A stretch of DNA of 64,000 bases from a virus (Duplodnaviria > Caudoviricetes). Under the pieces are notes generated by a model. The model ran no database searches and was not told the DNA's origin. It worked only from the letters and a program-made list of their open reading frames with translations. Shown one piece after another: positions 14,051 through 37,666 of the stretch; position 1 is the first letter of the stretch, and every line of letters begins with the position of its first letter. A program made the translations under genes and the position numbers. The stretch covers positions 1-64,000 of the IMG/VR virus record IMGVR_UViG_3300006846_000010; one strand, 5' to 3'.

Positions 14051-14053
14051 AAA

Positions 14054-19800: not shown

Positions 19801-19837
19801 AATCGTAGAGAATAAAAACTGATTGAAGGATGAATCG

Positions 19838-20056: not shown

Positions 20057-20062
20057 CGAAAG

Positions 20063-21079
20063 ATGATCACGCGAGACAAGATCGCCGGCTCGTTCTACGG
20101 CCTGGCCCTGGGTGACGCCCTCGGGCGACCCACCGAGTTCATGTCCCTCAAGCACATCAAGCGTACGTACGGGAGCTACGGCGTCATGTCGCTGCCCCGG
20201 CCAGCGCTGTTCACGGACGACACCCAGATGACCCTCGCCGTGGCGAGGGCCGTCGGCGCCGCGCGTTGGTTCGGGCCCAACGAGCTGGTTCGCACCCTGA
20301 CGACCGAGTTCCTCCGCTGGGCGGTGCAAGACCCATCTCGCGCGCCGGGCGTCACGTGCGTGACGTCCGTGCGGCGCCTGGCGATCGCCCGGGTTCGTCA
20401 CGAGGCGTGGACGACGGCGACCACCGTGTCCCGAGGTTGCGGCGCCAACATGCGCGTCGCGCCGACCGCGCTGCTACCGGACGCCGACCTGGCCGTCTCG
20501 GCGTCGCAGCTGCAGGCCGCGCTGACCCACGGCGACCCGGTGGCGATCGCGGCCACCGAGCTGACCGCGCTGGCGATCCGGTACGCCGCGGAGGGCGCCG
20601 ACCTGGTCGAGCTGCCGCGCATGCTGCTGGCTCGTGCGTACACCCAGCGGGGCATATACCGCGACCGGTGGCTGCGCGGACTGCATACCCGCTGGGTGAC
20701 CCGGGGCAACCTAAGCGCCGAGGTCGTCATGGAGCGGGCGTGGGACCGGATCGCCGACACGATCCGAGGCGTTATGATGGCGCTCGCCGACTCGCAGACG
20801 CCCTATGACGTCTGCCGGACGCTCGGCGCGGCGTGGACGGCGGACGAGGCGCTGGCCTGCGCGCTGTACTTCGCCGTGCGGTTCGGCGGGGTGCCGCCGG
20901 TAGCGATCTCGATGGCGGCGAGGACGTCGGGTGACAGCGACTCGATCGCCTGCATCACCGGGGCGATCGTGGGCGCCTATCACGGCGAGTCGGTCTGGCC
21001 ACTGCACTGGCGAGCGCGGATCGAGCGTCGCGGCGACGTCGAGGACGCGGTCGACACGATCTGGCAGCTGTGGGAATAA
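20063..21079 (+). CDS. ADP-ribosylglycohydrolase (DraG/ARH family)
   Basis: GLALGDALG, FTDDTQM, GCGANMR, LTHG, GDSDSIA motifs. Confidence 0.9.
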   Translation: MITRDKIAGSFYGLALGDALGRPTEFMSLKHIKRTYGSYGVMSLPRPALFTDDTQMTLAVARAVGAARWFGPNELVRTLTTEFLRWAVQDPSRAPGVTCVTSVRRLAIARVRHEAWTTATTVSRGCGANMRVAPTALLPDADLAVSASQLQAALTHGDPVAIAATELTALAIRYAAEGADLVELPRMLLARAYTQRGIYRDRWLRGLHTRWVTRGNLSAEVVMERAWDRIADTIRGVMMALADSQTPYDVCRTLGAAWTADEALACALYFAVRFGGVPPVAISMAARTSGDSDSIACITGAIVGAYHGESVWPLHWRARIERRGDVEDAVDTIWQLWE

Positions 21080-21112
21080 CGTACGACTAACGTAATACTT
21101 AGGAGGATCGAG

Positions 21113-21397
21113 ATGCGTCAGGACAGGGCACAGCACACGGTGGACACAATCATCGACACGCACGTCGAACAGCTCGGCGGAACGGGTGACCCGTCCCGGG
21201 TGGCGCAGGCGCTACGCAACGCGAAGAGCGACTTACACCTACTGATCGAGCAGATCTTTGACGAGTGCGGATTCGAGGCGGCTGCGGACCAGGCGATCGA
21301 GTTAACCCGGGAAGATCCGTACGGCGATCGTGCTGAGTCGTTGCGCAAGCGCCAGGCGGAGCTCGAGGCGGAGTATCCTGATGATCAACATCACTGA
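21113..21397 (+). CDS. hypothetical protein
   Basis: AGGAGG RBS. Confidence 0.65.
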   Translation: MRQDRAQHTVDTIIDTHVEQLGGTGDPSRVAQALRNAKSDLHLLIEQIFDECGFEAAADQAIELTREDPYGDRAESLRKRQAELEAEYPDDQHH

Positions 21398-21638
21398 TGT
21401 GTACAGATCAGCAACGGCAACACCTAGGTAAAACAGCTTCCAGGTGATGAGGATGACGTGGGTGGTCGCAACCGTGCGGCGGTACAACTAGCCGCCAACC
21501 TAGGAATCAGGTACGTACACGCGCTGCGACTGTTTCGCGGCGTGTCGGCGGAGTGGGCAGATCTTGACACGTACGATAAGCTGCTCGACCGCTGCCGCGC
21601 CGCACTTACCGAGGAGCGCGGTGGAAGGAAGGTGACGA

Positions 21639-22286: not shown

Positions 22287-22957
22287 ACATCCTGTTGGCC
22301 GGCATCGTCGGCTCTACCGCCTATGGGCTGGCCGGTCCCGGCTCTGACGTGGACCGCCTGGGGATGTTCGCCGTTCGCACGGAGACGCTTCACGGCTTAC
22401 ACCCGCCGACCGAGTCGGTTGTCGCCGTCAACCCGGACCGGACATTGCACGAGGTGCGTAAGTACGCACGACTCGCGCTGGGCGGCAACCCAACGGTGTC
22501 GGAGCTGATGTGGCTCGAATCGTATGAGACGGAGACCTCACTAGGCCGTGATCTGGTGGATATCCGCACGGCGTTCCTGTCGGCAAAACGTACGCGCGAC
22601 GCTTACCTGGGTTACGCCACCCAGCAGTTCCGCAAGCTCGAGTCACGCGGTGACGGCTCGTTCTCCGCCGACACGCGTAAGAGAACGGCTAAGCACGCCC
22701 GGCACCTACTAAGGTTGTGCTGGCAGGGTTATAACCTGTACGTCACCGGCGAGCTGATGATCCGACTGGATGACCCACAGAGGTTTTTCGACTTCGGTGA
22801 GCGGGTGGCCGCCGGTGACATTCAGCACGCACGTGAGATGATGTCCAGCTACGAGACGGCGTTCGACCGAGGTCGGTCGGTGCTGCCGGATCGACCCAAT
22901 GAAGCGGCGGTGGAGGCGTGGCTACTGCGGGTAAGACACGCCTACCTGGGCAGCTAG
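22283..22957 (+). CDS. DNA polymerase beta-like nucleotidyltransferase (YcgL/Nuc-transf type)
   Basis: IVGSTAYGL...SDVD (GS-x-DxD), GNPT, YLGYA, KHARHLLRL. Confidence 0.85.
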   Translation: MNILLAGIVGSTAYGLAGPGSDVDRLGMFAVRTETLHGLHPPTESVVAVNPDRTLHEVRKYARLALGGNPTVSELMWLESYETETSLGRDLVDIRTAFLSAKRTRDAYLGYATQQFRKLESRGDGSFSADTRKRTAKHARHLLRLCWQGYNLYVTGELMIRLDDPQRFFDFGERVAAGDIQHAREMMSSYETAFDRGRSVLPDRPNEAAVEAWLLRVRHAYLGS

Positions 22958-23051
22958 GCGAAGTTCTTCGAACCCGCCGCGACCTGGACCTCTGCCGGGT
23001 TTGGAGAATTCGGTGGCGCCGCTTTGCCCATCCTCCTGGTACGGTAACACC

Positions 23052-23426
23052 GTGCCGCTGTGGCTTGTTGTTCTCCTCGTCATTCTCGCGACCCACCGGG
23101 TCACGAGGCTCATCTCCAGCGACGCGATCCCGCTGGTAGCCGTTCCGCGCGAGGCGTTCGTCCGGCGGTGGGGCGTCTACGCGGACGCCCCACCCGAGGA
23201 GCGCTCGCGCGTCTCGATGAACGGACGCCGCACCAACGTCGTCATGCGATCGCTGGCGTACCTGTGGGAGTGTCCGTGGTGCGTCTCGATGTACGTGGGT
23301 GCGGGTATCTCATATGCGGCGTGGACGTGGACCCCGCTGGGTGACCAGCACTGGCTCATCACCGTTCTACTCGCCTTCTCGTCCTCCGGCGTGACGGGCC
23401 TGATCGCGGAACGGGAGAAGGACTAA
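23052..23426 (+). CDS. DUF1360-like membrane protein
   Basis: ATHRVTRLISSD...CPWCVSMY; leaderless TACGGT-6 nt-GTG. Confidence 0.7.
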   Translation: MPLWLVVLLVILATHRVTRLISSDAIPLVAVPREAFVRRWGVYADAPPEERSRVSMNGRRTNVVMRSLAYLWECPWCVSMYVGAGISYAAWTWTPLGDQHWLITVLLAFSSSGVTGLIAEREKD

Positions 23427-23626
23427 TGACGGGTACCCACTTTCGCGACGTCTGCGTTCACGGTGACGTGGTAAGGCAGTGTCGCTGCGCCGGACCTAAG
23501 ACGGACCACATCGTACCGTGTCCGCCGAGTTGTGCGACCCGGCCGCCGGCGTACACGGGACGACACCAGGTCGAGGCACAAGTAAACACCGTTGTCATCG
23601 AGGGTGAGTTGGTAGCCGATGACTAG
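23426..23626 (+). CDS. small Cys-rich protein
   Basis: CVHG...QCRC...CPPSC; coupled. Confidence 0.55.
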   Translation: MTGTHFRDVCVHGDVVRQCRCAGPKTDHIVPCPPSCATRPPAYTGRHQVEAQVNTVVIEGELVADD

Positions 23627-23954
23627 GCCTAGCGTCTGTCGCATGGTGCACTACACCAGCTTCGGAACACCTGGCGGCGAGTATCTGCCTGTTTGTCGCG
23701 CCGCGGTGATCACCGAGGTCGGACAGTGGGTCACCGTCTCCGAGGTTAAGGCCACGAGTTACTCGAAAAGCGAGGGCCGGCCGATCCGGACGCTCGAGCA
23801 GTGGTGGTACGACGACGCCGTGGCGCTGGTTGTGTTGAACCCGACGGGGTTGTTCTTCAACGGAGCCGGACCGGTCGCGTGTAAGCACGACGAACCCTAC
23901 GCCGGTCACGCGCCGGCCGGCGGCACCTGGCACTGGCCCGAGCGCGTCGAGTAG
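23619..23954 (+). CDS. conserved phage protein
   Basis: PSVCRMVHY...CRAAVITEV...LNPTGLFF...GTWHWPER. Confidence 0.7.
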   Translation: MTRPSVCRMVHYTSFGTPGGEYLPVCRAAVITEVGQWVTVSEVKATSYSKSEGRPIRTLEQWWYDDAVALVVLNPTGLFFNGAGPVACKHDEPYAGHAPAGGTWHWPERVE

Positions 23955-23968
23955 CCGAGGAGACACCC

Positions 23969-25738
23969 GTGGGAGACCGTCCCGTCGCCGTTATGCGGCG
24001 TCAGTTGCCGCACGAGGTTGCGTTGCACGGTGCGAACGGGCGTCCGGTAGCGCCGTTCGCCGGGCAGCTGACGGCGGCCGCTCAGCTGATGCTCGGCAGC
24101 GATATCCAGCGTCCGTACATCTCGGAGAGCTGGCAGGAGGAGGCCTGGGACTTCTACGAGGGGCTGGGTGAGTTCAACTACGGCGTCGAGTGGTTCGGCG
24201 AGGCTATGTCCCGCGTTCGTCTCACCGCCGCGGTCGTCGGCCCGGCGGGTGACGAGCCCGAGATACTGGACTCGGGTCCCGCCGTAGACCTGGTCGCGGG
24301 ACTCGTCGGAGGTACCGACGGCCAGGCGCGCATGCTCCAGTCGTTCGGGATCCAGTTGAGCGTTCCGGGTGACTGCTACCTGATCGGTCGCGAGGTCGAT
24401 CCCGGCGAGCTGGAGCTCGGGACCCTGCTGGACGGCGAGCCCGACGAGCACGGCCGGGTGTGGAGCGTTCAGCCGGTGCACACCGTGCGCCCCTCACGGC
24501 GGCTGATCGATGTCTCACTTGGGTTGCTAACCGGCGGTCGACGGCGACGCACCGGAACGCGGCGTGGGTGGCAGGTGCAGGTCGACGAGTCCCGCTGGGT
24601 GGACCTCCCGGGTGAGTCACTGGTCTGTCGTGTGTGGAACCGAAACGAGCGGCTGCCGTGGCGTGCCATCTCGCCGGCGAAGGCCGCGTTGTCAATCATG
24701 CGTGAGATCGACATGTATAACCGACAGATCATCGCCTCGCTGGTGTCACGCGTCGCTCTCAACGGCATGCTCTTCATTCCGGACGAGGTTACGTTCCCGG
24801 TCAACCCGGCGTACCAGAACGCCGGTGATCCGTTCGTCGCCGAGCTGGTTGACATCATGCGCGCGGCGATTAAGAACCCGGGCTCACCGGCGTCCGCGGC
24901 GCCGCTGCCACTGCGAGTACCCGCCGAGTATATCGAAAAGTTTCGCCACCTCACCTTCGCGACGCCGTTGGATGAGAAGCTGTTCCAGTACCGTGAGCAG
25001 GCGTTGCGGCGACTCGCGACGACCCTCAACCTGCCGGCCGAGGTCCTCACCGGCATGGGTAACACGACTCACTGGGCGGCGTGGCAGCTCGAGGAGAGTG
25101 CCATCAAGCTGCACATCTCGCCGAAGGTCGAGACCGTGGTGCAGTGTTTGACCGTGGGCTACCTACACCCGATGCTGCGATCGCTGGGTGAACCCGTTCG
25201 GACGTCGGACGGCAACCGCATCGTGGTGTGGTATGACACGTCCGAGCTTACCCAGCGGACCGACCGTTCTGATGTCGCGCTTAAGCTACGCGACATGCTG
25301 GTGATCAGCGATGAGGCGACGCGGCGGGAGGCGGGCTTCGATGAGGCCGACGCGCCGACCACCGACGAGCTCGAGAGCATGGTTCTCCGGAAGCTGGCCG
25401 TGCAGCCGCAGACGGCGGCGCCGGCGCTGAAGGAGCTGACGGGACTGGAGCTGTCGGTCCCGTCACCGGAGGCCCCGACGGCCGGCGCGTCCTCGGACGC
25501 CGGCGGCCCCGTGGGTGCCGAGACGTCGGAGTCCTCGGACGCCGGCGATGACGCGCCGTCCGTCGGTCCTCCGACGACCCGGTACGACCAGCCTCCGACC
25601 GACGCGACCACGGCGGCGACCGTACCGCCACCGACGCCCGACGAGCGGCGTCGGTTGGTCGTACGACGCATCCACGGACCGCTCCGGAGAGCGCGTGAGT
25701 CCTCCCGAGACGGCCGCCTGACCCGCGTAGGTAGGTAG
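23969..25738 (+). CDS. portal protein
   Basis: WQEEAWDFY..LGE, SRVRL, GMLFIPDE, P.EVLTGMG..HW.AW pattern of actinophage portals; position before head genes. Confidence 0.85.
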   Translation: MGDRPVAVMRRQLPHEVALHGANGRPVAPFAGQLTAAAQLMLGSDIQRPYISESWQEEAWDFYEGLGEFNYGVEWFGEAMSRVRLTAAVVGPAGDEPEILDSGPAVDLVAGLVGGTDGQARMLQSFGIQLSVPGDCYLIGREVDPGELELGTLLDGEPDEHGRVWSVQPVHTVRPSRRLIDVSLGLLTGGRRRRTGTRRGWQVQVDESRWVDLPGESLVCRVWNRNERLPWRAISPAKAALSIMREIDMYNRQIIASLVSRVALNGMLFIPDEVTFPVNPAYQNAGDPFVAELVDIMRAAIKNPGSPASAAPLPLRVPAEYIEKFRHLTFATPLDEKLFQYREQALRRLATTLNLPAEVLTGMGNTTHWAAWQLEESAIKLHISPKVETVVQCLTVGYLHPMLRSLGEPVRTSDGNRIVVWYDTSELTQRTDRSDVALKLRDMLVISDEATRREAGFDEADAPTTDELESMVLRKLAVQPQTAAPALKELTGLELSVPSPEAPTAGASSDAGGPVGAETSESSDAGDDAPSVGPPTTRYDQPPTDATTAATVPPPTPDERRRLVVRRIHGPLRRARESSRDGRLTRVGR

Positions 25739-25819
25739 CCCGTGGTCCAGGCGTGGGAGCCGCAGAACGAGGATCATGCGTCGTCCTTGGGTGTGATTAC
25801 CGGTGATATAATCTCATCT

Positions 25820-28800
25820 ATGAGCGCGCAAGACGATGAGGAGCTCGCGTCGCTGGTGGCCGCCGCTAAGTGGACGCCGAGCGCGCACCCGCGGGGCAAG
25901 GACGGTAAGTTCATTAAGAAGGGCGCGCTCCAGGAGCTGCTGTCCGCGAAGACCGTCTCCGTCACACAGGTGCTCAACGCCGCGGACGACCTCACGGCGG
26001 ATGACTGGCAGAAGCTGACGTCAGCCCAGCAGGACTACGTACAGACGACGCTGAGTAAGCTGCCCGCTACCTCGAACGCCGGTCAGAAGGCCGCCGCGAA
26101 GCTGGCCGAGGTGAAGGCCGCATCCGAGAAGAGTACCGCACAGAAGTCACAGGTTTCCGCCGGTCATAAGGGCAAGCCCGGCGATCCGGCGAAGGTCACC
26201 ACCTCGCTGATCTGGGGTAAGCACGAGCCGGGAACGGTTATCCTCGAGTCGCCTGATGGTACCCAGCGGGTCACGTGGACCGGTAAGAAGTATGTCATTC
26301 AGGATAAGATCACCGATACCGGTGAGTGGGTTAGCGGCACCGAGTGGACTAAGAAGGACACCTATGACATTCTTAAGAACGATGCACAGTGGGTGATCCC
26401 GGCCGGTAGTGGCGATCAAGGTACTGACACGCCTACACCACAGCCGACGCCGGAGCTCGACGTAGGATCTAACAACCCGGATGATCTCTGGGCTAAGGGT
26501 CTTATGACGACCGAGGAGTATGAGGCTACTACCGGTCAGATGCCTCCGTACGAGACGCTGGGTGTGCAGCCTTCCTCAGATATGACGAAGAAGGCTCCTG
26601 AGCTGCCTCACCTACTAACCGGGCAGCAGACGCTCGCCGACGTTAAGAAGTACGTCAACGTGCAGCATCCGCCGGGAACGGCGATCGCGTACTCACCAAA
26701 TGGCTCGGAGCGGATCGTCGATGGCGTCGACGGATATGAGCTTGAGAGCTGGCTTCCCGTGGCCGGGGAGTGGACGCACGAAGGTTTTGAGACGAATGCT
26801 GCGGTTACTGAAAAGATTTGGAGCGAGTGGCCCGTTCCCGCGAACCTGTGGCAGGCGTCGCACGCCGCAGAGCAACTCGAGGCAGATGAGCTGCTCGAGG
26901 GCCTTGATGACCTAGGTACCGACTCGTTTACCCAGCAGGAGAAGGACGCGTATAACACGTACGAGGACGCCGGCGGGTCAGCCGGGACTCTCGAGGAGTC
27001 GTGGCAAGCCGTCCAGGACGGCAAGGCGCTGCTGCCGAAAGGTACGACGGACGCGGAGGCCGTCGCCCTCTTCGATAAGATGGGTGCGGTGAAGTACGGC
27101 GGCTCGCCCGGGTATCTGCAGAAACTCTACGAGGACCTGATCGGCGTTAGTGATGAGCTTGACCTAGGCGGCTACGAAACCGATGACTCGTTTGCCGACG
27201 GTTTCATCGTAGGAAACTCGACGAACATCTCGCTGAAGAAGGCGCACGACTTCGTCGTTAAGACGAAGCACCCCGGGGGCACCGTCATCGCGAGGTCGGC
27301 CAACGGTAAGCTGCGCATCGTACGCAAGGGCAGTGGCTATGAGAGGCAGCTACTCGAAGCCAACGGCGTGTGGGAGCCCGTAGGTGACGTATCAAACGTA
27401 TCGGTGATTCATCGGATTCGCGGCGGCGTGGGCTCATCACAGGAGTGGCACGTTCCAAAGAAGCTGTGGGAGCAGACCGTCGGCGACCAGACGGCTCCGT
27501 CGGTATCACCAACGTCACCGGTGCCGAACACACCTACTGCGACGCCGAACTTCACCAATGAGCAGGTCATCTCGAACTGGCCGGGTGTGGCCGGTAAGAA
27601 GTACGCCGTTGGTGAAGATGTGGCGTTTTCGACCGACGGCTCGTACAAGGTGGTCTATGACGCGGACGGTGACTTCACCGTCGTGGGGGTGCACACCGGA
27701 ACCGTCATCTCTAGCTTCGGAGTCGGCGAGGTTAAGTCCGGTACGCTCGAGTATGTGTTCAACACCGAGTGGTACGTGCCGGCACCGAAGTCACCGTCAC
27801 CGCAGCTTCCCGGCGCCGGGGATCCGGTAACCGCGCAGGCCGTCTTCGACGTTGCCGGCGTGGGCAACGTCCCGGACGGTACGGTGCTCGCCGTCGGCAG
27901 CGACGGCATGGGTGGCGAGTATAAGATGCTGGCCGCCACGTCATTCACGGGTAAGCCGTCCGTCGAGCTGCTGGTCAAGCAGGCGGCGCCGAGCACGATG
28001 TTCCAAAGTGCCGGGACGTACAAGTCGCACGCCGACTACAACATAGACATGGGCATCGTCGGCGTTAAGTGGTATAAGTATGATGATACGTCTCAGCCCT
28101 TTGCGCCGGGTGCGAAGACCGTAGGCGCCCCCGAACTCACGTCTCCGGCCGAACCCGAGCCGTTCGAGGTCACCGCCGCCGATAAGCTGGGTTTCAAGGC
28201 GGCTATGAAGACGGCGAACGTCGGCTACTGGTCGAAGCCCGATAAGATCTGGGACGCGGTCACCGCGATTCAGAAGCAAAACGTTCGTGATGACGACCCG
28301 GGTCACTCGAAGTTTTCGCCGTTACAGATCTTACAGGCGCTGGACGAGCAACTTAAGACGGCCGACCCGAACCCGTACCAGAAGAAGATCCAGAAGTGGT
28401 CTAAGACGGCGGTCGGCCAGGCATACATCTCGGGTAAGAAGAAATCGGCAGATACGACGTCGTTTGCCGACTCGTCAATCGTGCCTAACTTGTGGACACA
28501 AGCTCAGAGTGCGCCGAATGACACCGTTGTTATGACGGGTAAGTCACAGGCCGGCAACGACTACCGAATGGTTGCGGACTACCCATACATTCACGTTCAG
28601 ATCTTTGATGCGAACGCAGGTATGTGGTCCACTCTTACGTCGGCGTACTTTGATAGTCCAGCCGACCTAGTCGCCGTACTTGATGATCCAGATGTGAAGT
28701 GGCAGTTAGTTGCACCAAACGTGTCGGTACCGGCGCCGACACCTGCAACCGTGGGACCTGACACATCCGCCGTTGAGCAGCCAGTAGCCGCTAAGGTTTG

Positions 28801-30418
28801 GGATGACGTACTGAAGTTGCCCACCGGAATCATCATCGCAAAAGGCACTTCTAGCACGGGACTCACGTATCAGATCAAGGTTGCGACATCCGGTGCCGGC
28901 AATAAGATGGCTATGGTGTTCATGCACAGCAAGAACACCAACACGTGGGAACACGTCTCATCATTGTTTAGTGAGTCTGATGTAGCCGATATGTTAAACG
29001 CTCCTGGGATAACCTGGCAGGCGTGGACGCCTACGGAGGCACCGGAGGTCGTGCCTGCGATATCTCAGGGGTTGGCAGGATATCCCACGTCCGACGCCAA
29101 CGTAAACGTGCCGTACACGCTTAAGAACAACCCGAAGATCTCGAACGATGAGATCTTCGAGAAGCTGAAGAGCGCCGCGCCGGGTCAGGTGCTCGCGTAC
29201 GCCCGTGGGCAATACGGAAACACCAAGTATCGCTTGGTAGTGAGTCAGACGGACGACGGAGTGCCGGCCGTCGCGCGTGAGGTGTGGTTTCCACAGACCG
29301 GCTGGTCGTCGAACAAGTATGCGAAATACACAACGTCCGCGTCACTGCATGACAGTACGAAGTTTACCGTCCCGGACGGCAAGTGGGTCACCGCCGAGAA
29401 CGCGAAGATCATCACGGCGAAGAAGGTCACGGCGAAGAAGGCCACTCCGGCGGCCGCGCCGGCGCCGACACCGCTCGACGGTCAGCTAAACATGGGTGGC
29501 AGCAACACGTCGCACATCGCCGAGACGCAGAAACAGTCGCTCTACACCAAGTTCAAGCACCAGCCTGCAACGTACCTCGACTCGCCGCCCAGCGACATCT
29601 ACGCCGCGCTTAAGACCATCGCGGACGACGAGGGCCTGAGCCTACTCCAGATGTTGCGCGTCGTCGATGAGGTGGGCGCGAAGAAGGTTAACCTCGAGGA
29701 TAAGCACCTCTTCGAGGCGAAGATCAAGAGCTGGCTGCAGACGCCGCAGGGCGCGGCGATGGCCAGCGGCAAGCCGATCCCGCTGCCCGACACACCGACG
29801 TACCACCCGGGAGTCGGTCCTCAGAACTTGCCGTCGTTCGAGGCGTCCAGCGGGTTGAAGTACGATGTCGTACCGTCCTCGCAGGCCACGAGCGTCTGGC
29901 AGAAGATCATCGCCAAGCACGGAGACGAGTGGACAGCATCACAGAAGGCCGGTCTACGCGTGTACACCGGCGGTTCGTACTTCTCCATGAACGCGTACCT
30001 GTACGGCAAGCTCGACAGCGTCTCCGCGGCGCACATGAAGAACATCAAGCAGGCACAACTGGGCATGCGGCCGTCCGACCGGCCGATGTTGCTTCACCGG
30101 GGCGTCGGGTGGAACGGTGTCGGGGACGGTAAGAATCACGACGATCTGGTGAAGAAGATCGGCACGACGTGGAAGAGCGGAGGCTTCTTCTCGACCAGCG
30201 TCGGCGGCCACGCGGCGTTCGGCGGTCCGGTGCTCATCGAGGTGGAGGCGCCGCCGGGCACGCCGATGGCGTGGGTCGACCCGATCTCGCTCAACAAGGG
30301 TGAGAACGAGATGTTGCTCGCCGCCGGACTGCACTACAAGATAATCTCCGTCAAGAAGGTCGGCAGTACGAGTGTGGTCCGCGTCCGGGTGGTTCCGCCC
30401 CCGAAGGAGGAGTCGTGA
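25820..30418 (+). CDS. large polyvalent head-associated protein with C-terminal R-S-E ADP-ribosyltransferase (VIP2-like)
   Basis: YTGGSYFSMNAYL, LHRG, FFSTS, ENE; internal repeats; leaderless TATAAT(25807)-7 nt-ATG 25820. Confidence 0.85.
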   Translation: MSAQDDEELASLVAAAKWTPSAHPRGKDGKFIKKGALQELLSAKTVSVTQVLNAADDLTADDWQKLTSAQQDYVQTTLSKLPATSNAGQKAAAKLAEVKAASEKSTAQKSQVSAGHKGKPGDPAKVTTSLIWGKHEPGTVILESPDGTQRVTWTGKKYVIQDKITDTGEWVSGTEWTKKDTYDILKNDAQWVIPAGSGDQGTDTPTPQPTPELDVGSNNPDDLWAKGLMTTEEYEATTGQMPPYETLGVQPSSDMTKKAPELPHLLTGQQTLADVKKYVNVQHPPGTAIAYSPNGSERIVDGVDGYELESWLPVAGEWTHEGFETNAAVTEKIWSEWPVPANLWQASHAAEQLEADELLEGLDDLGTDSFTQQEKDAYNTYEDAGGSAGTLEESWQAVQDGKALLPKGTTDAEAVALFDKMGAVKYGGSPGYLQKLYEDLIGVSDELDLGGYETDDSFADGFIVGNSTNISLKKAHDFVVKTKHPGGTVIARSANGKLRIVRKGSGYERQLLEANGVWEPVGDVSNVSVIHRIRGGVGSSQEWHVPKKLWEQTVGDQTAPSVSPTSPVPNTPTATPNFTNEQVISNWPGVAGKKYAVGEDVAFSTDGSYKVVYDADGDFTVVGVHTGTVISSFGVGEVKSGTLEYVFNTEWYVPAPKSPSPQLPGAGDPVTAQAVFDVAGVGNVPDGTVLAVGSDGMGGEYKMLAATSFTGKPSVELLVKQAAPSTMFQSAGTYKSHADYNIDMGIVGVKWYKYDDTSQPFAPGAKTVGAPELTSPAEPEPFEVTAADKLGFKAAMKTANVGYWSKPDKIWDAVTAIQKQNVRDDDPGHSKFSPLQILQALDEQLKTADPNPYQKKIQKWSKTAVGQAYISGKKKSADTTSFADSSIVPNLWTQAQSAPNDTVVMTGKSQAGNDYRMVADYPYIHVQIFDANAGMWSTLTSAYFDSPADLVAVLDDPDVKWQLVAPNVSVPAPTPATVGPDTSAVEQPVAAKVWDDVLKLPTGIIIAKGTSSTGLTYQIKVATSGAGNKMAMVFMHSKNTNTWEHVSSLFSESDVADMLNAPGITWQAWTPTEAPEVVPAISQGLAGYPTSDANVNVPYTLKNNPKISNDEIFEKLKSAAPGQVLAYARGQYGNTKYRLVVSQTDDGVPAVAREVWFPQTGWSSNKYAKYTTSASLHDSTKFTVPDGKWVTAENAKIITAKKVTAKKATPAAAPAPTPLDGQLNMGGSNTSHIAETQKQSLYTKFKHQPATYLDSPPSDIYAALKTIADDEGLSLLQMLRVVDEVGAKKVNLEDKHLFEAKIKSWLQTPQGAAMASGKPIPLPDTPTYHPGVGPQNLPSFEASSGLKYDVVPSSQATSVWQKIIAKHGDEWTASQKAGLRVYTGGSYFSMNAYLYGKLDSVSAAHMKNIKQAQLGMRPSDRPMLLHRGVGWNGVGDGKNHDDLVKKIGTTWKSGGFFSTSVGGHAAFGGPVLIEVEAPPGTPMAWVDPISLNKGENEMLLAAGLHYKIISVKKVGSTSVVRVRVVPPPKEES

Positions 30419-32982
30419 GCGGCCTACACGCCCCGCTGGGCGGGATGCTGGACGTGATGGTGGAGGCTCAGCGGGGGCTGACGGAGGCGGAGGCCATCGC
30501 GTTTCTGGCGACGGGACAGCTGCCCGACCTATCACGTGATCCTGAAGACGAGGGAGTGGACGTCGACCTGGGACCGGTGCTGCTGGACGACTACGAGGCG
30601 GTGGCGCTGCTGGGGAAGCTGGCGCTGACGGCGGCCGGCGGTTTTTTATCGTCAAGTACGTTGCATCACACGCTGTCTCGTAGTGTTACGATGCGCTTTG
30701 ATCCGTCACAGCCGCGTGATGAAGACGGTAAGTGGACCGACGGCGGGATCGGCAGCCCGGCGAAGCTTCCCGGCCTCGCGTCATCCGGAGTGCGGCTGAC
30801 CCCGGCGAAGATCTATAAGAAGCACGCAGACGGCGCGGTGGTCGCCGTGGCGTCCGGCGGCGACAAGCGGATGCGCTGGGCCGCCGATCGCAAGCGCTTC
30901 GTCATCGAAAAGCTGGCGGCTGATGGCGGCTGGCAGGAGACCGCCGCGCTGACGAAGACCGCGGCGTACGCGGACGCCAAGAAGCCGGGCCGCTGGGATG
31001 AACCAGACGCCGCGACACCGACGGCTGTAGAAGGTACAGATACGGACAAAATTGTACCAACAGAATCACTTCAGACGCCCGAACCTGAACCGGCCGTGGT
31101 CGAACCAACGGCGAAAACCACATCGCCCGTGGTCACTCAGCTGCAGTTTGATGTGACCAACGAGAACATTGATCCCACGCTGGTGGATGACGTCATCGCC
31201 GGGATCGGCCACGACTTTCCGACGGTCACCGAGGGTACACGTGCGATGATCGTAAAGCAGCTCGCCGAGGGCGGACCGAAACGGCTGGGGGAGTACTTTC
31301 CCGGCGCCAACAGTTTCCAACTGAACCAGAGCTTGTGGAACGCCGACGGAACGCCTAAGCCACCCGAGCAGACGCGCGGTAAGTGGTGGTCGCACAACGA
31401 CGCCGAGACCGCGGTGGAGCACTTCGTCACGCATGAGCTGGGTCACCGCGTCGACAAGCTGCTAAAGATCGAGCAGCGCAACGAGATCTTCGCGCGGCTG
31501 TCGAAGTTGTGGAAGGTGTCGCCGCCGACCAACCTGAACACGTGGGTAGAGACCAACCGCGCGCTGATCCAGAAGCACGTGGGGCGGTACGCCTCGGAGA
31601 ACTACAGCGAGCTTCTGGCAGAGTTGTGGGCTGAGTATCGTCTCGCTAAGAAGCCGCGACCGGCAGCCGTTGCGTTCGGAGACGTCGTCACACCGATTCT
31701 CGGCGATGTGAATAAAAACGGGCTGGAGCTTACGACGACGGCAAAAATCGTCACATCTGTGCCTAACACGTCTGGTGCGCACAATGATCTGTACGCAGGT
31801 CCTCGTTTCGAGATGCCCGAGGACATCAATCACGTGTTCGTGGACGAGTACATGGACCTCACGAAGCGAGATCACCTAGCGGCCATCGCCGGCGGAAAGA
31901 AGCTAACCGCGACTGAGAGTGCGCGTCAGTATGAGTTGCGAGATGCGCTTTACGGTCTCCTACCTGCCGTGCGAAGTCGTATAGACCAGGAGGCACAGGT
32001 CACTGCTGCTCTCGAGAAGTGGCAGCGCGATAATGACTTACCGGTTGACTCGTCAGCTAAGTATAAGCGGACGCTCGCCAGGCAGGTACATGAAGCGTTT
32101 TCAGGTAAGCGGATCGGCGTCCGGGTGACGCCGAAAAACCTGGAAAACATACTCGATGACGGGCGCTTCAAGTCGCAGTTTGAGTCGGGTAAGTCGAAGG
32201 GCAACAATGACGCGATGTTGCGGGCGAACGTTGAGGCGTCGTGGTTTGGTATCGGCCAGGATCAACCGGTGCAGAACGCGATCCTCACTGAACCCGAGAA
32301 GAGACCCATCTACGGCTACGTAATGGTCGACGGCGTCCGACCGGTGGGCATCGGTTCAGGTGACTTGTTCGGACCTAGCACAGATGCGCTGTCGCAGTAC
32401 GGTCAGATCCAGGTAGTTCTCCGAGATCATGTGCGTGATCGAACCACGGCTATGTTCGGCGACTCGCTCAACAATCGACACCAGGGTATTCCATCACCGG
32501 TAAATCAACCTACGTGGCAGTCATTTACACCGGCGTGGAAGTCTATGGTGACGCAAGGTCTGGCCGGTCCGGTGCGTGACACAGACTCACCGCAGTTTCG
32601 TCACGGTAACTACGCCGAAGCTCAGGTACACGGCGGGGTTAGCCTGGCCGACATCGCGGAGGTCGTCCTGCCGAGCAACCCGCCGCCCGCACTTCGTAAG
32701 AAGTTGGATGACGCCGGTGTCTCCTGGCGAGTTCTTACGTTTAAGACCGCGGCGACCAACTCATCCGCGGAGGAACGTTCGATCGCACTGCGAATCGCAC
32801 GTGAGGACCGGCAGGTTATAAGTGACGAGTTGGACCACTTACGTGAAAAACTGGCTGACTACCAGAGCCGCGGTGACACATATACCGCTGATCAGACGAG
32901 TGCAGACATCAAGAAGCTGACGCGGCAGCTTACGCTGATTACCGATGCGATTCCCGCGCTGGAGAAGGCGGTAGCACAGTGA
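30415..32982 (+). CDS. polyvalent protein: zincin metallopeptidase plus DUF3626-like domain
   Basis: THELGH(31432)...YASENYSELLAE; ILDDGRFKSQFESG, RPIYG, QYG, YAEAQVHGGV; AGGAGGAG RBS. Confidence 0.75.
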   Translation: MSGLHAPLGGMLDVMVEAQRGLTEAEAIAFLATGQLPDLSRDPEDEGVDVDLGPVLLDDYEAVALLGKLALTAAGGFLSSSTLHHTLSRSVTMRFDPSQPRDEDGKWTDGGIGSPAKLPGLASSGVRLTPAKIYKKHADGAVVAVASGGDKRMRWAADRKRFVIEKLAADGGWQETAALTKTAAYADAKKPGRWDEPDAATPTAVEGTDTDKIVPTESLQTPEPEPAVVEPTAKTTSPVVTQLQFDVTNENIDPTLVDDVIAGIGHDFPTVTEGTRAMIVKQLAEGGPKRLGEYFPGANSFQLNQSLWNADGTPKPPEQTRGKWWSHNDAETAVEHFVTHELGHRVDKLLKIEQRNEIFARLSKLWKVSPPTNLNTWVETNRALIQKHVGRYASENYSELLAELWAEYRLAKKPRPAAVAFGDVVTPILGDVNKNGLELTTTAKIVTSVPNTSGAHNDLYAGPRFEMPEDINHVFVDEYMDLTKRDHLAAIAGGKKLTATESARQYELRDALYGLLPAVRSRIDQEAQVTAALEKWQRDNDLPVDSSAKYKRTLARQVHEAFSGKRIGVRVTPKNLENILDDGRFKSQFESGKSKGNNDAMLRANVEASWFGIGQDQPVQNAILTEPEKRPIYGYVMVDGVRPVGIGSGDLFGPSTDALSQYGQIQVVLRDHVRDRTTAMFGDSLNNRHQGIPSPVNQPTWQSFTPAWKSMVTQGLAGPVRDTDSPQFRHGNYAEAQVHGGVSLADIAEVVLPSNPPPALRKKLDDAGVSWRVLTFKTAATNSSAEERSIALRIAREDRQVISDELDHLREKLADYQSRGDTYTADQTSADIKKLTRQLTLITDAIPALEKAVAQ

Positions 32983-35519
32983 ATGTCGTAGCTGTTCGAG
33001 ATGACGGTGCGCTGTTGGTCACGACCGGTGGTCAAGTCGCCGCGATTGTCTCTGACGAGGGTGCGTGGCTCACCACCCGCGGTGCGGCGTTGGCGCGAGG
33101 TACCTGGACTGAGCCCGGACCGGGTGATACCGTCCCAAGCGCTCAGTATGACGCGATTCAAGTTCGTCTAACTGCGGCACTTTCCTCCGAAGATGGTGAT
33201 GAAACATCACTTGTGGCGACATTTGACGCGTCGCAGCCGCGCGACCCGCTGGGCATGTGGACCGCGGACGGCGGTTCGGACGATACCACCGAGGACGACT
33301 TCAGTAAGATGTCCGAGGACGCGCAGATCGACCTGCTCATCGCGACGATGAACGCGGCGGATGCCGGCGAGCCAGGTGCCCAGAGGGCGCTCGACCGGCT
33401 GCACAAGTGGATCGAGAGCGACGGCAAGGGCGGCGGTGGTGGGGGCGGCTCCGGGGGAGGCGGTAAGAGCCTCAGGGAGAAGGCCGCCGAGAAGGTGAAG
33501 CAGGCGACCGAGAAGGCGGAGAAGGATCGTGAGCGCGAGACGCAGGACGGTCTGCGTCCCGAGGTCGCGAATAAGAAGCACCCCGACGGGTACGTCGCCG
33601 GCGAGTCGAGTACCGGTAAGAGCCGGATCCGGTATGACGCCGAGAAGGAGGACTACGTCGTCGAGCAGCGCTCCGACGTTAAGTCCACCGAGTGGCATGA
33701 GTCGCGGCGTCTCAGTGCGAAGGAGCTCTTCGACGAGCTGTCGGAGCACCCGGAGCGCTGGGAGAGGCCCAGCGACGTGACGCGGTCGCCGGCGAGGTTC
33801 GAGGATCCCCACGAGAGGGCTCCCGCGAAGAAGGCCGCACCCGCCGAGCAAGACGCCGACGAGGATGAGGTCAACCGGAGGCGTCGTATGATCGAGGATG
33901 TACCTACGGTCTCGGCAAGTGAGCCGCACTCCGGTGCGATGGTGGCGCTGGTGCCGTCCGACGAGGACGGGGTCTGGCTGGCGGTCGACGGTGGCGAGGA
34001 CCCAGACGACCTACACGTCACCCTCTGCTTCCTCGGCGAGGCGGCCCTGGTCCCGGCCGAGGTGCGCGAGCGACTGGTGGAGTGCGTCGCACGGTGCGTC
34101 GAGTCGTCCCCGACGGTCATCGGACGTGTGTTCTCGGTGGCGCTGTTCAACCCCACGCCTTCAGGCGCGCCGGGCGACTCGGACGAGACGGCGGCGCTCG
34201 GCGGGCACGAGCCGTGCGTCGTTCTGCTTACTGGAGGGTCGCAGCTCGAGCGGATGCACTTGCTGGTCGCAGAAGACGTGCGCTCGACCCTGGCGTCGGC
34301 CGGCGTCGAGTACCCGAGTCAGCACACCCCGTGGGTACCGCATATCACATTGCTGTACGGGGACGCCGACCCGCGCGAGTACGCCAATCGTACCGGATTC
34401 GTGACGTTCGACAGGGTGCGTGTGGCGTTTGGTGACGACGTCTACGACATCCCGCTGGGCGACAGCGATGCTTATGACATTTCGCTAGGCGATAGCGACG
34501 GTGTTTACGACGCGGTTTCATCCGGCTTTGATCCGAGTCAGCAGCGAGACATCGAAGGTAAGTGGACGGACGAGTCGGGTGGCGGCAGCCTTGGTGATCT
34601 CTGGGAGAACTTCGGAGACCACGTTGGTCAAGTCATTGCCGAGACACTGAAGAATGAATTTGGCGTCAAGCAGCGTGCTGTAGTGCGTGAGAAGAACGGC
34701 AAGCCGTACGTCGAGGTGCAGTCGCAGACGAATGACGGTCCGTGGAAGAAGTGGACTGACATTCGCAAGCAGTCTGACTTCAACGAGCAGATCGCCGAGA
34801 ACGAGTGGGCCGGGTGGAAAAGTGTCTCGCCGCACGAGCCCGACGAGTCTGGTGAGCAAACGTCGATCGGTAAGCAGTACACGCCCATTAACCCGCCGGG
34901 TAGTGACAACTACGGAACACCGCGCGACGAGTGGGTAAACGTCTCGGCGGACGACACGCCCGCTGACTGGTCTACCGGATCGAACGTCATAACGGCCGAC
35001 GAGGCACGGGAAATGCACGACACCGTGATGAGTCAAAAGTCGTGGGACGAAGACACGGCTACGACGATCTACGACTACACGCAGTCGGCGCAACCGATAA
35101 ATGAGGCGCTGCGAAATCGAAGCTCTGTGACCTTCGAGGGAGTAGAGGTCCGAGAGACAACGAGGTATCTGGACAAGGCGATGTATCCCGCGCCGCGTGA
35201 TCTCACGGTGTTTCGGCAGGTGAATCCAAGTGCGTTTGGCGCAACTAACGTTGCCGAGCTGGTGGACGTAGACGGTAAGATGTTCAAGGATCTGGCATAT
35301 CTGTCCACGTCGGTAACGCAGGACAGTCACCTGGACTTCATTTCAGACGTGCACATGAGACTTGATGTTCCAAAAGGTACGAAGGTCGCGTACGTCGCAG
35401 ATGTTAGCCAGTTTCCCGAGCAGAACGAGTTACTTCTTCGCCGCGGAGCGAAGATTAGGATTAACCGCGTCGAGGTGAAGAACGGACGCGCGTTCATCTA
35501 CGCGGAGGTGGTAAAGTGA
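32979..35519 (+). CDS. polyvalent protein: 2H phosphoesterase plus C-terminal R-S-E ADP-ribosyltransferase
   Basis: LHVTL(34014) and PHITL(34341); YT..AQPINEALR, VFR, YLSTS, QNE. Confidence 0.85.
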   Translation: MNVVAVRDDGALLVTTGGQVAAIVSDEGAWLTTRGAALARGTWTEPGPGDTVPSAQYDAIQVRLTAALSSEDGDETSLVATFDASQPRDPLGMWTADGGSDDTTEDDFSKMSEDAQIDLLIATMNAADAGEPGAQRALDRLHKWIESDGKGGGGGGGSGGGGKSLREKAAEKVKQATEKAEKDRERETQDGLRPEVANKKHPDGYVAGESSTGKSRIRYDAEKEDYVVEQRSDVKSTEWHESRRLSAKELFDELSEHPERWERPSDVTRSPARFEDPHERAPAKKAAPAEQDADEDEVNRRRRMIEDVPTVSASEPHSGAMVALVPSDEDGVWLAVDGGEDPDDLHVTLCFLGEAALVPAEVRERLVECVARCVESSPTVIGRVFSVALFNPTPSGAPGDSDETAALGGHEPCVVLLTGGSQLERMHLLVAEDVRSTLASAGVEYPSQHTPWVPHITLLYGDADPREYANRTGFVTFDRVRVAFGDDVYDIPLGDSDAYDISLGDSDGVYDAVSSGFDPSQQRDIEGKWTDESGGGSLGDLWENFGDHVGQVIAETLKNEFGVKQRAVVREKNGKPYVEVQSQTNDGPWKKWTDIRKQSDFNEQIAENEWAGWKSVSPHEPDESGEQTSIGKQYTPINPPGSDNYGTPRDEWVNVSADDTPADWSTGSNVITADEAREMHDTVMSQKSWDEDTATTIYDYTQSAQPINEALRNRSSVTFEGVEVRETTRYLDKAMYPAPRDLTVFRQVNPSAFGATNVAELVDVDGKMFKDLAYLSTSVTQDSHLDFISDVHMRLDVPKGTKVAYVADVSQFPEQNELLLRRGAKIRINRVEVKNGRAFIYAEVVK

Positions 35520-37666
35520 CTAGGCGATCGCCGATGAGTCCAAACGACGCGCGATTTGTCTCGGCTGTAAGTGAGAGCGATGTCAACGCTCCGGGACCCG
35601 GTCACAACCTGCGAAACTACTGGGTGCGCGGCGAGGGTGCGGTGAAGATCAGGTGGGGCACCGACGGCTCGTTCGCGCGGTGCGTCTCGTTGCTCGGAGA
35701 GCACGTGAAGAATCCACAGGGTCTGTGTGCCGAGTATCACAAGGCGGCGACCGGCGAGTGGCCCGCCGAGAAGGGCGTCGAGAGTAGCGGCGAGACGACC
35801 GCCGCACTAGGCTATGCTGGATCAGAGACGGAGGTGGCTGATGTGACTATCGCAGCGACCAAGGAACCCTACGGTGACGTCGAGTACGCCGACACCGGGT
35901 TGCAACCCGACGGCGTTAAGCGGTACCCGCTGAATACCGAAGCGCACGTTCGTGCGGCGTGGTCGTACATCAATCAGCCAGACAACGCGGCTAAGTATAC
36001 AGCGGTACAACTGCGCCGGATTAAGGCGCGCATCCGTCGCGCGATGCTCGACATCGGCGCCCAGGTCGCCGACTCGGACGGCGACTCAGAGGTGTTTCGC
36101 AATAACGCTGACGCCGAAGCGGACGGTGACTGTCCGCCCAAGCACCACAAGATGCCAGACGGCACGTGTATGTCTGATGACGAGATGACGTACGCACTCA
36201 CGGCCGCTGCGGCGGAGGTGGCAGAGAAGCCAGAGGTCGACACACAGGTCGACGAAAATGTTGAGGGTGACGTCACCGGGCCAGACGCTCCGACCGGTTC
36301 CGCGCCGTGGCACGGTGTTCTCACCGTGGAGGGCATCGAGTCGGGTGACGGCCGCATGTTCGCCGCGGGCTCACTGACGTGGGACACCCCGCCGCTGCCG
36401 TTGATGTGGCAGAAGGTCACCAGCCACGGCGGACAGAGCGACGTCTCGGTCAGCGTCGGCAGCATCGACCGGATCTGGCGCGAGCCCGATCCCGCCGGTC
36501 GCGTTGACGTAAACATCATCAAGGGCGCCGGTACGATCGACCTCGGCAATCCCGACGGCCTCGAGGTTCGCCGCCGGATGAGTAATGACTACATGCGTGG
36601 CAACTCGGTGGACGTCGACTCGGTGAAGGGCGCGGATGTCGAGCTGACGTTCCCGGAGCCGACGGTGGAGATGAGCGCCGACGGTGAGACGACCGTGAGC
36701 CCGGTGGTCGCCGCCGAGCCCGTACTCACCACGTTCCACCGCGGCCGAATCCGGGCGACGACGCTGGTCGAGATACCGGCGTTCACCGAGGCGCGGCTGC
36801 AGCTCGGGGTGGCGCCCGATGTCGACGGCCGGGGGCAGACGACCCGGATCGAGCTCGGTGATTCGAACGCCGATGAAGACAGCGGTGATGACGTTGTCGA
36901 CGGTGAACTGTCCGATGACGAGACGCTCGTCGCGGCCGTCGCGGTGTTCGAGATTACCGACGCGCCGCCGCGCTCGTGGTTCGAACGTCCTACCGATGTT
37001 GAGATTAACGGCGCGCTGACCGTCCTGCCCAGCGGGAGGATCTACGGCCGCCTCGCACCGGCTCGCGTTCGTCACCGGGCGTACACCCACGTGGACCGCT
37101 ACGTGCCGATGCGGAACGTCGACTACGACCGGTTCCACGGCGGCGAGACGATCGTCGCCGACGGCGGTCGGGTGTCGACCGGGGTCATCACCATGAACTG
37201 CGGTCACGCATCCACCCTGGTGCGACTCAGCGGCGAGCAGGCCATGCAACACTACGATAACACGTGCTCGGTGGTGGCCTCGGCGCGCGTGGGTGAGGAC
37301 CGCGACGGCGTCTGGATCGCCGGCGCGCTCTTGCCGGACGTGACACCGGATCAGGTACGACGAATCATGTCGTGCCGGCTGTCGGGCGACTGGCGGGCGC
37401 ACCTGGACCGGTCCGGCTGGACCGAGCTGGTGGCGGCACTGCTGGTACCGGTGCCCGGTTTCCCGGAGGCCCGGTCGGCGCCCAGCGTCTCGCTGACGGA
37501 TGGCGTCTTGACCGCGGCGTCCGTACCGGTTCAGGTCGAGCTGCCCGAGGCTGTTCCGCTGGGTGACCGTGTGACGGCCGCCGCGTCCCGGGTTCGGCGG
37601 GCGCGCGTTCGCAGGTCGCGTAGTCGCATCACAGAGTATCGGTCGCGCACCGTTGTGATACAGTAG
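35516..37666 (+). CDS. capsid maturation protease/scaffold with N-terminal accessory domains (including DUF6582-like)
   Basis: WHGVLTVEGIESGDGR, TLVEIPAF, RVGEDRDGVWIAG, LSGDWR, VPVPGFP; EPYGDVEYAD..KRYPLNTEAHVRAAWSYIN; position before capsid. Confidence 0.75.
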   Translation: MTRRSPMSPNDARFVSAVSESDVNAPGPGHNLRNYWVRGEGAVKIRWGTDGSFARCVSLLGEHVKNPQGLCAEYHKAATGEWPAEKGVESSGETTAALGYAGSETEVADVTIAATKEPYGDVEYADTGLQPDGVKRYPLNTEAHVRAAWSYINQPDNAAKYTAVQLRRIKARIRRAMLDIGAQVADSDGDSEVFRNNADAEADGDCPPKHHKMPDGTCMSDDEMTYALTAAAAEVAEKPEVDTQVDENVEGDVTGPDAPTGSAPWHGVLTVEGIESGDGRMFAAGSLTWDTPPLPLMWQKVTSHGGQSDVSVSVGSIDRIWREPDPAGRVDVNIIKGAGTIDLGNPDGLEVRRRMSNDYMRGNSVDVDSVKGADVELTFPEPTVEMSADGETTVSPVVAAEPVLTTFHRGRIRATTLVEIPAFTEARLQLGVAPDVDGRGQTTRIELGDSNADEDSGDDVVDGELSDDETLVAAVAVFEITDAPPRSWFERPTDVEINGALTVLPSGRIYGRLAPARVRHRAYTHVDRYVPMRNVDYDRFHGGETIVADGGRVSTGVITMNCGHASTLVRLSGEQAMQHYDNTCSVVASARVGEDRDGVWIAGALLPDVTPDQVRRIMSCRLSGDWRAHLDRSGWTELVAALLVPVPGFPEARSAPSVSLTDGVLTAASVPVQVELPEAVPLGDRVTAAASRVRRARVRRSRSRITEYRSRTVVIQ

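Follow-up and report, generated by a model that had tools for sequence, protein, structure and literature searches.

The window analysed here covers the first 64 kb of a virus record of 103,486 bp (IMGVR_UViG_3300006846_000010) that CheckV rates as complete and that derives from an uncultured soil phage. Between its portal and major capsid protein genes lie four open reading frames (ORFs), all on the + strand; the first three encode giant proteins, gpA, gpB and gpC, which together form the cassette discussed below, and the fourth encodes gpD, a candidate head protease (Table 1). A 4-nt GTGA start/stop overlap joins gpA to gpB, gpB to gpC and gpC to gpD (the last at 35516). The original prediction, made from the DNA letters without database searches, had placed three coupled giant ORFs in a slot between portal and protease, and both the coupling and the slot were confirmed, the portal gene matching phrog_776 and gpD matching phrog_18402 (gpD being a protease by PHROG name and position). 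Only the first start codon required revision. The ATG at 25820 had been taken as the start of a protein of ~1530 residues; GTG at 25742 gives a 1558-residue form, identical to the protein on record in Logan/ENA and JGI/IMG, and because residues before the ATG also align with homologues, the ATG is probably too late.

Table 1. Coordinates of the cassette, its modules and the neighbouring genes, with the matches or model confidence on which each assignment is based.
Feature	Position	Strand	Description and evidence
Terminase large subunit	12497-14050		phrog_2, E 8.8e-30
ADP-ribosylglycohydrolase (ARH), candidate immunity enzyme or eraser	20063..21079	+	PF03747, E 8.9e-58
RlaP-like nucleotidyltransferase	22283-22957		PF10127, 7.4e-19
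Portal, 589 aa	23969..25738	+	phrog_776, E 6.5e-111; 62% identity to L021 portal
gpA, 1558 aa	25742..30418	+	Short N-terminus, tag, helical bundle, ~8 beta-domain repeats, two helical modules, ADP-ribosyltransferase (ART); no MuF
gpA tag, H-P-R-G-x-D-G-K-F type	25862..25927	+	Tag hidden Markov model (HMM), E 1.5e-7
gpA adaptor: helical bundle (aa 62-134) and first beta domain (aa 157-217)	25925..26392	+	AlphaFold2 (AF2) predicted local distance difference test (pLDDT) >90; module HMM, 6.9e-32
gpA array: degenerate beta-domain repeats and helical module	26633..29386	+	Weak HMM repeats at aa 306, 507, 618, 711; further copies by eye
gpA ART	29903..30364	+	PF03496, aa 1388-1541, 2.4e-13; PDB 8za7, 8.7e-6
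gpB, 855 aa	30415..32982	+	Leader, tag, beta domain, Pro-rich linker, HExxH region, SopF-like ART, coiled coil
gpB-type N-terminal leader, aa 1-71	30415..30627	+	Leader HMM, 4.2e-27
gpB tag	30694..30753	+	Tag HMM, 2.5e-11
gpB beta domain, four strands and helix	30811..30999	+	pLDDT ~95; module HMM, 1.4e-30
gpB HExxH region, zincin-like, unconfirmed	31162..31650	+	HELGH, aa 340-344, at 31432-31446; pLDDT 50-70
gpB DUF3626/SopF-like ART-fold domain	31792..32754	+	PF12294, aa 577-687; Foldseek SopF; pLDDT >90
gpC, 846 aa	32979..35519	+	Leader (weakly supported), tag 1, helical region and beta domain, 2H, tag 2, beta domain, ART
gpC tag 1	33213..33281	+	Tag HMM, 5.5e-7
gpC beta domain 1	33564..33764	+	Module HMM, 1.5e-31
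gpC 2H phosphoesterase	33888..34559	+	phrog_2659, 7.9e-25; phrog_18402, 4.3e-24
gpC tag 2, degenerate Q-Q-R-D	34527..34586	+	Tag HMM, E 0.028
gpC beta domain 2	34650..34808	+	Module HMM, 3.4e-21
gpC ART	35052..35480	+	PF03496, aa 692-834, 3.9e-24; C3stau2 1ojq, 2.8e-10
gpD, 716 aa	35516..37666	+	N-terminal Cys-containing domain, DUF6582, protease-like region, C-terminal domain
Major capsid protein, 580 aa	38067..39809	+	phrog_777, 3.2e-138; no match to tag HMM

Two parts are common to gpA, gpB and gpC: a tag of ~20 residues (F-D-P-x-Q-P-R-D-x-x-G-K-W type) and a beta domain of ~60 residues. One tag and ~8 beta domains, the later ones degenerate, are found in gpA, one of each in gpB, and two of each in gpC. 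When an HMM trained on 239 instances of the tag in other proteins was run over the whole genome, it matched at exactly four sites, all of them in gpA–gpC (E 2.5e-11, 1.5e-7, 5.5e-7 and 0.028); the next match (0.062) was in a minus-strand ORF, and none was found in the portal, gpD or the capsid protein. As the instances were selected by regular expression, the fixed positions of this HMM are partly imposed. The tag residues H49, P50, R51, G52, D54, G55 and F57 of gpA are invariant across nine aligned homologues, and in an AF2 model of gpA residues 1–300 the tag (pLDDT 80–93) is modelled within a folded unit. In gpB, the tag falls in a low-confidence stretch (pLDDT 31–54) that is probably disordered and is undocked from the neighbouring beta domain. 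The original prediction also listed a common leader among the shared parts, which did not hold: the likeness between the gpB and gpC leaders is weak (E 0.004, with the tag included in the alignment), the leader HMM matches gpB alone, and a shared leader is unsupported for gpA. Searches for known relatives of the tag and beta modules returned little. The gpA 1–300 model had a best E of 0.044 in a BFVD fold search and a best Z of 5.6 against 48,161 VIA chains, through generic helical matches (residues 53–135) that barely test the beta domain; an ESM Atlas query with the beta domain gave no usable match; and tblastn of the gpA and gpB tag and beta modules against 50,697 GenBank phages, a set that may lack near relatives, found none at E<=1e-3 or E<=0.1.

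The predicted enzymes are carried behind these shared parts. The two R-S-E ARTs of the original prediction, at the C-termini of gpA and gpC, have their motifs in place: R1453, S-T-S 1484–1486 and E-x-E 1521–1523 in gpA, by alignment to C3-type toxins and motif search, and R746, S-T-S 776–778 and Q-x-E 815–817 in gpC, by alignment to a C3-type toxin and motif search. R1453, E1521 and E1523 are invariant across the nine gpA homologues. The 2H phosphoesterase of gpC retains both of its motifs (H-V-T, aa 346–348, and H-I-T, aa 455–457) and scores below the Pfam cut-offs of PF13563 (18.7 bits) and PF02834. A 2H domain is also found in Gordonia phage McKinley (L003:5807-8425) and cluster relatives, inside an 872-aa protein encoded downstream of a true MuF gene; this protein, annotated as ‘head maturation protease’ in RefSeq and ‘RNA ligase’ in GenBank, is another way to place 2H in the head module.

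The DUF3626-like domain noted in gpB can now be described in structural terms. It scores 26.9 bits against PF12294, for which the cut-off is 27, and precomputed PF12294 assignments are present in 17 of 30 listed proteins, the first being gpB itself. The AlphaFold model of gpB, built on 38 sequences, reaches pLDDT >90 for residues 460–855, and when this model was parsed with Foldseek the C-terminal half matched Salmonella SopF, alone and with NAD (7dn8 and 7dn9; E 2e-6, probability 1.00). The match to 7dn8_A has an E of 2.1e-6 and a template modelling score (target) of 0.48, and the next matches are OspC3/CopC, then DarT; phmmer of gpB against PDB sequences found nothing meaningful. DUF3626 has been linked to SopF (PMC6682159), and SopF is described as an ART with NAD-binding/catalytic residues Y224, Y240 and E325 (PMC11937434). 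As SopF is an ART and the gpB DUF3626 domain is predicted to fold like it, the cassette would hold not two but three domains of the ART superfamily. Homologues of this SopF-like domain (tblastn E 1e-15 to 1e-17) include the products of gene 2 in mycobacteriophages L5 and D29, which carry a hypothetical annotation and by this homology are candidate ARTs.

The HExxH zincin of the original prediction is a lead only. The HELGH motif is followed by a Glu-rich stretch (aa 399–405), and the nearest ESM Atlas clusters of the region (score 0.96) are of the ‘Pro-Pro endopeptidase’ and ‘anthrax lethal factor’ types; the region has no match to any Pfam peptidase family. Between it and the beta domain lies a Pro-rich linker (P-E-P-x-P-A-V-V-E-P-T type; 31078–31116 in the window) that is conserved in the gpB-type proteins P0005, P0012 and P0035–P0039. 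This linker may be a second processing or hinge site, next to a region that resembles Pro-Pro endopeptidases in the ESM Atlas.

MuF, which has been described as a capsid-targeting domain for toxins (PMC11699363), had not been recognised in the three ORFs, and its absence now extends to the whole genome. The Pfam family PF04233 had no match at E<=10 in gpA, gpB, gpC or gpD and no candidate at that threshold in six frames of the 103-kb genome, and an HMM of the MuF domains of this lineage gave a best E of 0.77 in the whole genome, versus 5e-82 to 2e-57 for controls. The alignment of gpA to its relatives begins just behind their MuF motif, such that gpA appears from sequence comparison to begin right where a MuF domain would end. 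Its orthologues are MuF–ART fusions with 32–53% identity along its length; full-length alignments with the MuF-bearing P0052, P0053 and P0059 show 33, 40 and 53% identity, respectively. The portal–gpA junction is spanned by Logan contigs of two runs, with 0 differences and no alternative joint. Since these runs may be source samples, their agreement excludes an assembler artefact and does not speak for independent occurrence. The sequencing runs listed as containing the sequence include no RNA run.

At this junction, the TAG stop of the portal gene and the GTG start of gpA are in the same frame and one codon apart (25727–25744), and the stop is inside an 11-nt run that places TAG in all three frames. 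Read-through of this stop would yield some of the gpA as a portal–gpA fusion, mimicking the fusions of portal, tag and cargo that exist in L009 and P0027, and the single in-frame TAG between the two ORFs is what such a mechanism would need. We nevertheless give it hardly any credence. Chance alone would put the two ORFs in one frame a third of the time, and the 11-nt run would offer a TAG in whichever frame the portal ended; TAG is an ordinary stop in this genome, ending 29 of 64 long ORFs, and no suppressor tRNA is encoded; and the sister phage described next has an 8-nt portal/gpA overlap instead.

The closest relative, L021, is a 105,970-bp metagenome contig with genes for an ARH, portal, gpA-, gpB-, gpC- and gpD-type proteins and capsid in the same order. 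Its gpA-type protein (1831 aa), with which gpA also aligns, starts with a MuF domain (Pfam 6.6e-12, lineage HMM 5e-82), and its gpB-type and gpC-type proteins stand beside this MuF-bearing protein without a MuF of their own. The cassette varies between the two phages in the way that the original prediction had proposed to look for: the L021 gpB-type protein lacks the HExxH insert and the gpC-type protein lacks the first tag and beta unit, and modules have therefore been swapped at tag and linker borders. The MuF C-R-C motif of the L021 protein (L021:5516-11011) is interrupted by an insert of ~270 residues whose first residue is Cys and whose last is Asn, with a further Cys following; it is intein-like, and matched no Pfam intein family at E<=1e-3. 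Elsewhere, MuF is fused to the cargo protein in L020, L024, L029 and L031; in L022 and L030 it is fused to a short tag-ART protein that is followed by a second, tag-first giant gene; and in L025 the form is split, a separate 258-aa MuF gene lying just ahead of a tag-first ART gene. A query for related loci with P0060 returned an unrelated locus only (32%), and one with gpB in IMG/VR gave matches at the level of the tag only.

To see how the shared parts are used more widely, a profile of the four window copies of tag and beta domain was searched against 1.84 billion cluster representatives, and matched 403 at E<=1e-3 and 150 at <=1e-10. Many of the matches are 1000–2900 residues long, with the module starting near residue 260–290. 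Among the best 150 of the 403, which include gpB and gpC themselves, the lineage MuF HMM matches 75, a count that is partly true by construction as that HMM was built largely from the same matches. A gpB-type leader is present in 25, and another N-terminus in 13; 28 carry the tag inside the first 70 residues with neither MuF nor leader, and in nine no tag was found by regular expression. In a sample of 35, hand-picked and biased towards whole-module matches, Pfam MuF was found in 23 and PF03496 in 31. The consensus of the chosen matches runs from the MuF motif straight into a gpA-type tag, helical part and beta domain, and ends in the same C-terminal ART, the tag lying 20–47 residues behind the C-R-C motif in 50 of the 55 proteins where the distance was measurable.

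Other anchors and cargoes follow the same pattern. The tag stands behind portal domains of the lambda type (L009) and the Mu type (P0027), behind a gpB-type leader as a gpA-type tag in the hybrids P0050, P0071 and P0076, and ahead of ART-PolyVal and PF03496 domains in other viral contigs, including the low-G+C protein P0043. The bead-on-a-string proteins P0064 and P0083 have 7–8 tags, one before each domain. Behind the leader, tag, beta domain and linker of gpB-type proteins, the cargo is GNAT-like, PI3/4-kinase-like, ParB-like, ART, 2H, zincin-like or DUF3626, as labelled partly from precomputed Pfam and partly from sequence reading. DUF3626 cargo is found elsewhere fused to MuF (P0026, P0031, P0032), to the Mu-type portal (P0027) and, as read from the sequence, to protease-like regions (P0032, P0039). 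The usual build of the family would be an anchor (a MuF domain, portal domain or leader of ~70 residues), then the tag, the adaptor and one or more enzymes.

These comparisons do not sustain the proposal that the cassette is a separate, MuF-independent system. The tag and beta domain normally follow MuF, and the closest relative has MuF on the orthologous first protein, making a MuF-less derivative the better description. We consider it somewhat probable that the cassette belongs, as a variant without MuF, to the known family of MuF- or portal-linked polyvalent effectors, that its products are packaged, and that the ARH removes self-inflicted ADP-ribosylation. Fusions of head-packaged ARTs and 2H domains to MuF or portal are described in PMC5512222 and PMC9503650. 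The proteins would be made together with the head genes and enter the procapsid via their N-terminal parts (leader and/or tag and beta-domain adaptor), possibly to be trimmed inside it; they would then exit along with the DNA, to work in the next host as three ARTs (one E-x-E, one Q-x-E and one SopF-like), one 2H phosphoesterase and, perhaps, one zincin peptidase. Loading in this phage, if it happens, must be MuF-independent.

In the producing cell, self-inflicted ADP-ribosylation would be removed by the ARH encoded 4.7 kb upstream. The gene at 20063 had been called a cognate eraser, and an ARH is indeed there. Its role as a producer-cell immunity enzyme is plausible by analogy with Bxa, a MuF–ART toxin with an adjacent ADP-ribosyl hydrolase immunity gene (PMC11699363), and by synteny in L021, where the orthologue (E 1.2e-119) is ~1.6 kb upstream of the portal gene.

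Alternatively, the three proteins may not be packaged at all, and may be late cytoplasmic enzymes that act in the producing cell, the loss of MuF marking a loss of virion association for at least gpA. We regard this as unlikely. It would fit a genome without MuF, and an ARH in the same genome implies that ADP-ribosylation in the producing cell is expected to matter. A complex prediction of the portal (7-row alignment) with gpB 1–125 scored 0.00, giving no support for binding of the leader to the portal and yet no evidence either way. On the other side, the three genes sit within the head module with their translation coupled; homologues of their modules occur as fusions with MuF, portal and protease-like proteins; gpB- and gpC-type proteins are MuF-less in the sister phage too, where they stand beside a MuF-bearing gpA; and the ORF of 1558 aa is uninterrupted, its catalytic and tag residues being invariant. 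Several points still count against a packaged, MuF-less effector cassette. We infer packaging and injection from position, coupling and homology, and the roles of the tag and the ARH likewise, so that packaging is argued from the kinship of an uncultured phage's genes, and both runs that confirm the portal–gpA junction may be source samples of the record. Without its MuF, gpA may no longer be loaded at all. The ARH gene is not adjacent to the cassette and was found in only one of the 30 other loci searched (L021), with flanks limited to 7–10 kb. The DUF3626 domain is 0.1 bit below the Pfam cut-off and its likeness to SopF is one of predicted fold; the zincin call is weak, with no Pfam match and a low-confidence model; and the gpD protease label comes from PHROG names and position alone.

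What the tag does is a question of its own. We favour a loading (docking) role, possibly combined with trimming, over a pure cleavage site, as the tag starts every cargo unit whatever the anchor, is kept on anchor-less proteins and in split genes, is invariant and modelled within a folded unit in gpA-type proteins, and is absent from the capsid protein and the protease. There is nonetheless some chance, clearly short of even, that the tag is mainly a proteolytic site, with cargo loaded via its anchor and then cut at each tag in the head by the prohead protease or a zincin (that of gpB, for example), freeing single enzymes. Tags lie exactly at anchor/cargo junctions, after MuF, portal domains or leader, and before each enzyme in P0064 and P0083; these bead-on-a-string proteins and anchor–tag junctions keep the cleavage reading alive. 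The gpB tag is in a probably disordered stretch, and a proposal by Iyer et al. (PMC5512222) has polyvalent proteins processed by zincin peptidases. A cleavage site is harder to reconcile with the 28 of the best 150 matches that have the tag in their first 70 residues and thus no anchor to be released from, or with L025, where the tag is on a separate gene; the gpA-type tag is invariant and is modelled as part of a folded unit, and many tag proteins have no zincin. That the capsid protein, portal and gpD lack the tag means that it is not a general head-protease site. Self-cleavage at an Asp-Pro bond within the tag was considered and dropped because the residue before Pro varies among tags (D, N, S, T, K).

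Another possibility, which we find improbable, is that the gpA array of ~8 beta domains is a hub binding the tags of gpB and gpC, with the three proteins entering the head as one complex. The excess of beta domains over tags in gpA, compared with one each in gpB and two each in gpC, would suit such a hub, as would the observation that tag and beta domain co-occur and yet also occur apart among the profile matches. Against this, the tag is not docked on the neighbouring beta domain in the gpB model, and some route into the head would still have to exist for the hub. Returning to a loading role for the tag, we suggest only tentatively, as one of the bolder extensions of these data, that the tag (F/Y-D-P-x-Q/H-P-R-D/G-x-x-G-K/R-W/F) and beta domain together form a portable capsid cargo-loading signal that needs no anchor and is used by hundreds of phage lineages, of both high and low GC, for the loading of diverse enzymes, with MuF, portal or leader as optional reinforcements.

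The product of the fourth ORF, gpD, 57% identical to its sister gene in L021, matches PF20223 (DUF6582; 3.5e-17), phrog_859 (2.2e-66) and phrog_18402 ‘head maturation protease’ (1.5e-28). No Pfam protease family matched it, phmmer found no relative among PDB sequences, and its candidate His/Ser residues were picked by eye, so the ‘protease’ label reflects its PHROG name and its position. Its conserved N-terminal Cys-containing domain (35516–36100) corresponds to phrog_6439. In P0039 (see also L021:14727-17243), this Cys-containing domain and DUF6582 are fused behind a leader-tag-ParB-like-ART-2H protein, which indicates that cargo and protease can be one polypeptide. The terminase–portal interval (14050–23969) spans ~10 kb of mostly unknown genes, the ARH among them, and tRNA genes for Asp-GTC, Glu-CTC and Arg-GCG lie near the right genome end (G000 101189-102236, outside the window). 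The base composition is ~64% G+C, with nearly all long ORFs of high third-position G+C (GC3) on the + strand; the G+C fraction of the cassette is 0.58–0.63, versus 0.67–0.69 for its flanks. A near-DNA search of the cassette against the 50,697 GenBank phages found no match.

A first strike by effectors packaged in the head is believed to be widespread among phages. To our knowledge, how cargo enters the capsid has been worked out in few model phages only (T4 signals; SPP1 gp7/MuF, which binds the portal). Within the literature searched, the widespread tag and beta adaptor and the natural pair of MuF-null and MuF-bearing sisters seem to be new: no description of the adaptor was found there, nor in the passages covered of PMC5512222 and PMC9503650 (supplements excluded). 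The tag marks the start of a cargo unit in hundreds of protein clusters, whatever the anchor, and its retention without any MuF offers a concrete entry point to how cargo is loaded and processed, and possibly a means of bringing foreign proteins into capsids. Among phage head cargo, domains of the SopF-like (DUF3626) kind would be a third ART type.

Among known systems, the cassette resembles MuF-toxin fusions (Jamet 2017, PMC5576092; Bxa, PMC11699363; Microbacterium MuF-VIP2 ART, PMC7302621) in its head-module site by the portal and its C-terminal VIP2/C3-type ART. As for Bxa, an ADP-ribosyl hydrolase is encoded in the same element, here 4.7 kb away rather than adjacent. The C-terminal effector and the portal gene directly upstream are thus both present, while the N-terminal PF04233 domain is missing; the cassette further differs in the lack of MuF anywhere in the genome, its much larger proteins, its beta-domain arrays and its three cargo genes in a row. 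Polyvalent proteins (Iyer 2017, PMC5512222; 2022, PMC9503650) are similar in carrying at least two effector domains per polypeptide (ART, 2H, zincin-like), in being encoded beside portal and terminase head genes, in being predicted to be packed and injected, and in the shuffling of domains among relatives. A comparable multi-effector build is seen here, with an HExxH region and SopF-like ART in gpB, 2H and ART in gpC, and terminase, portal and capsid genes nearby. No Pfam LPD or MPTase-PolyVal family matched, and in the available text of the two papers ‘SopF’ is absent from that of 2022 (PMC9503650) and ‘DUF3626’ from that of 2017 (PMC5512222). The functional model is T4 Alt, a packaged and injected ART (PMC5512222).

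Salmonella SopF (DUF3626; 7dn8, 7dn9) has the same ART fold as that predicted for the gpB domain, but only 15% identity to it. It is a type III effector, whereas the gpB domain is encoded in a phage head module, and it needs host ARF, as its PDB titles state, a partner not expected in bacteria. For the tag, we propose an analogy with T4 Alt and the T4 internal proteins, whose capsid-targeting sequences are short N-terminal signals ahead of the cargo. The T4 signals are cut by gp21. The tag, as a short conserved peptide carried by varied enzymes, could likewise steer them into an HK97-fold shell, a likeness to encapsulin cargo-loading peptides by analogy only. Should the tag and beta domain prove to be a portable, anchor-free signal, comparable to T4 capsid-targeting sequences and encapsulin loading peptides, this MuF-null phage, set against its MuF-bearing sister, would demonstrate the principle.

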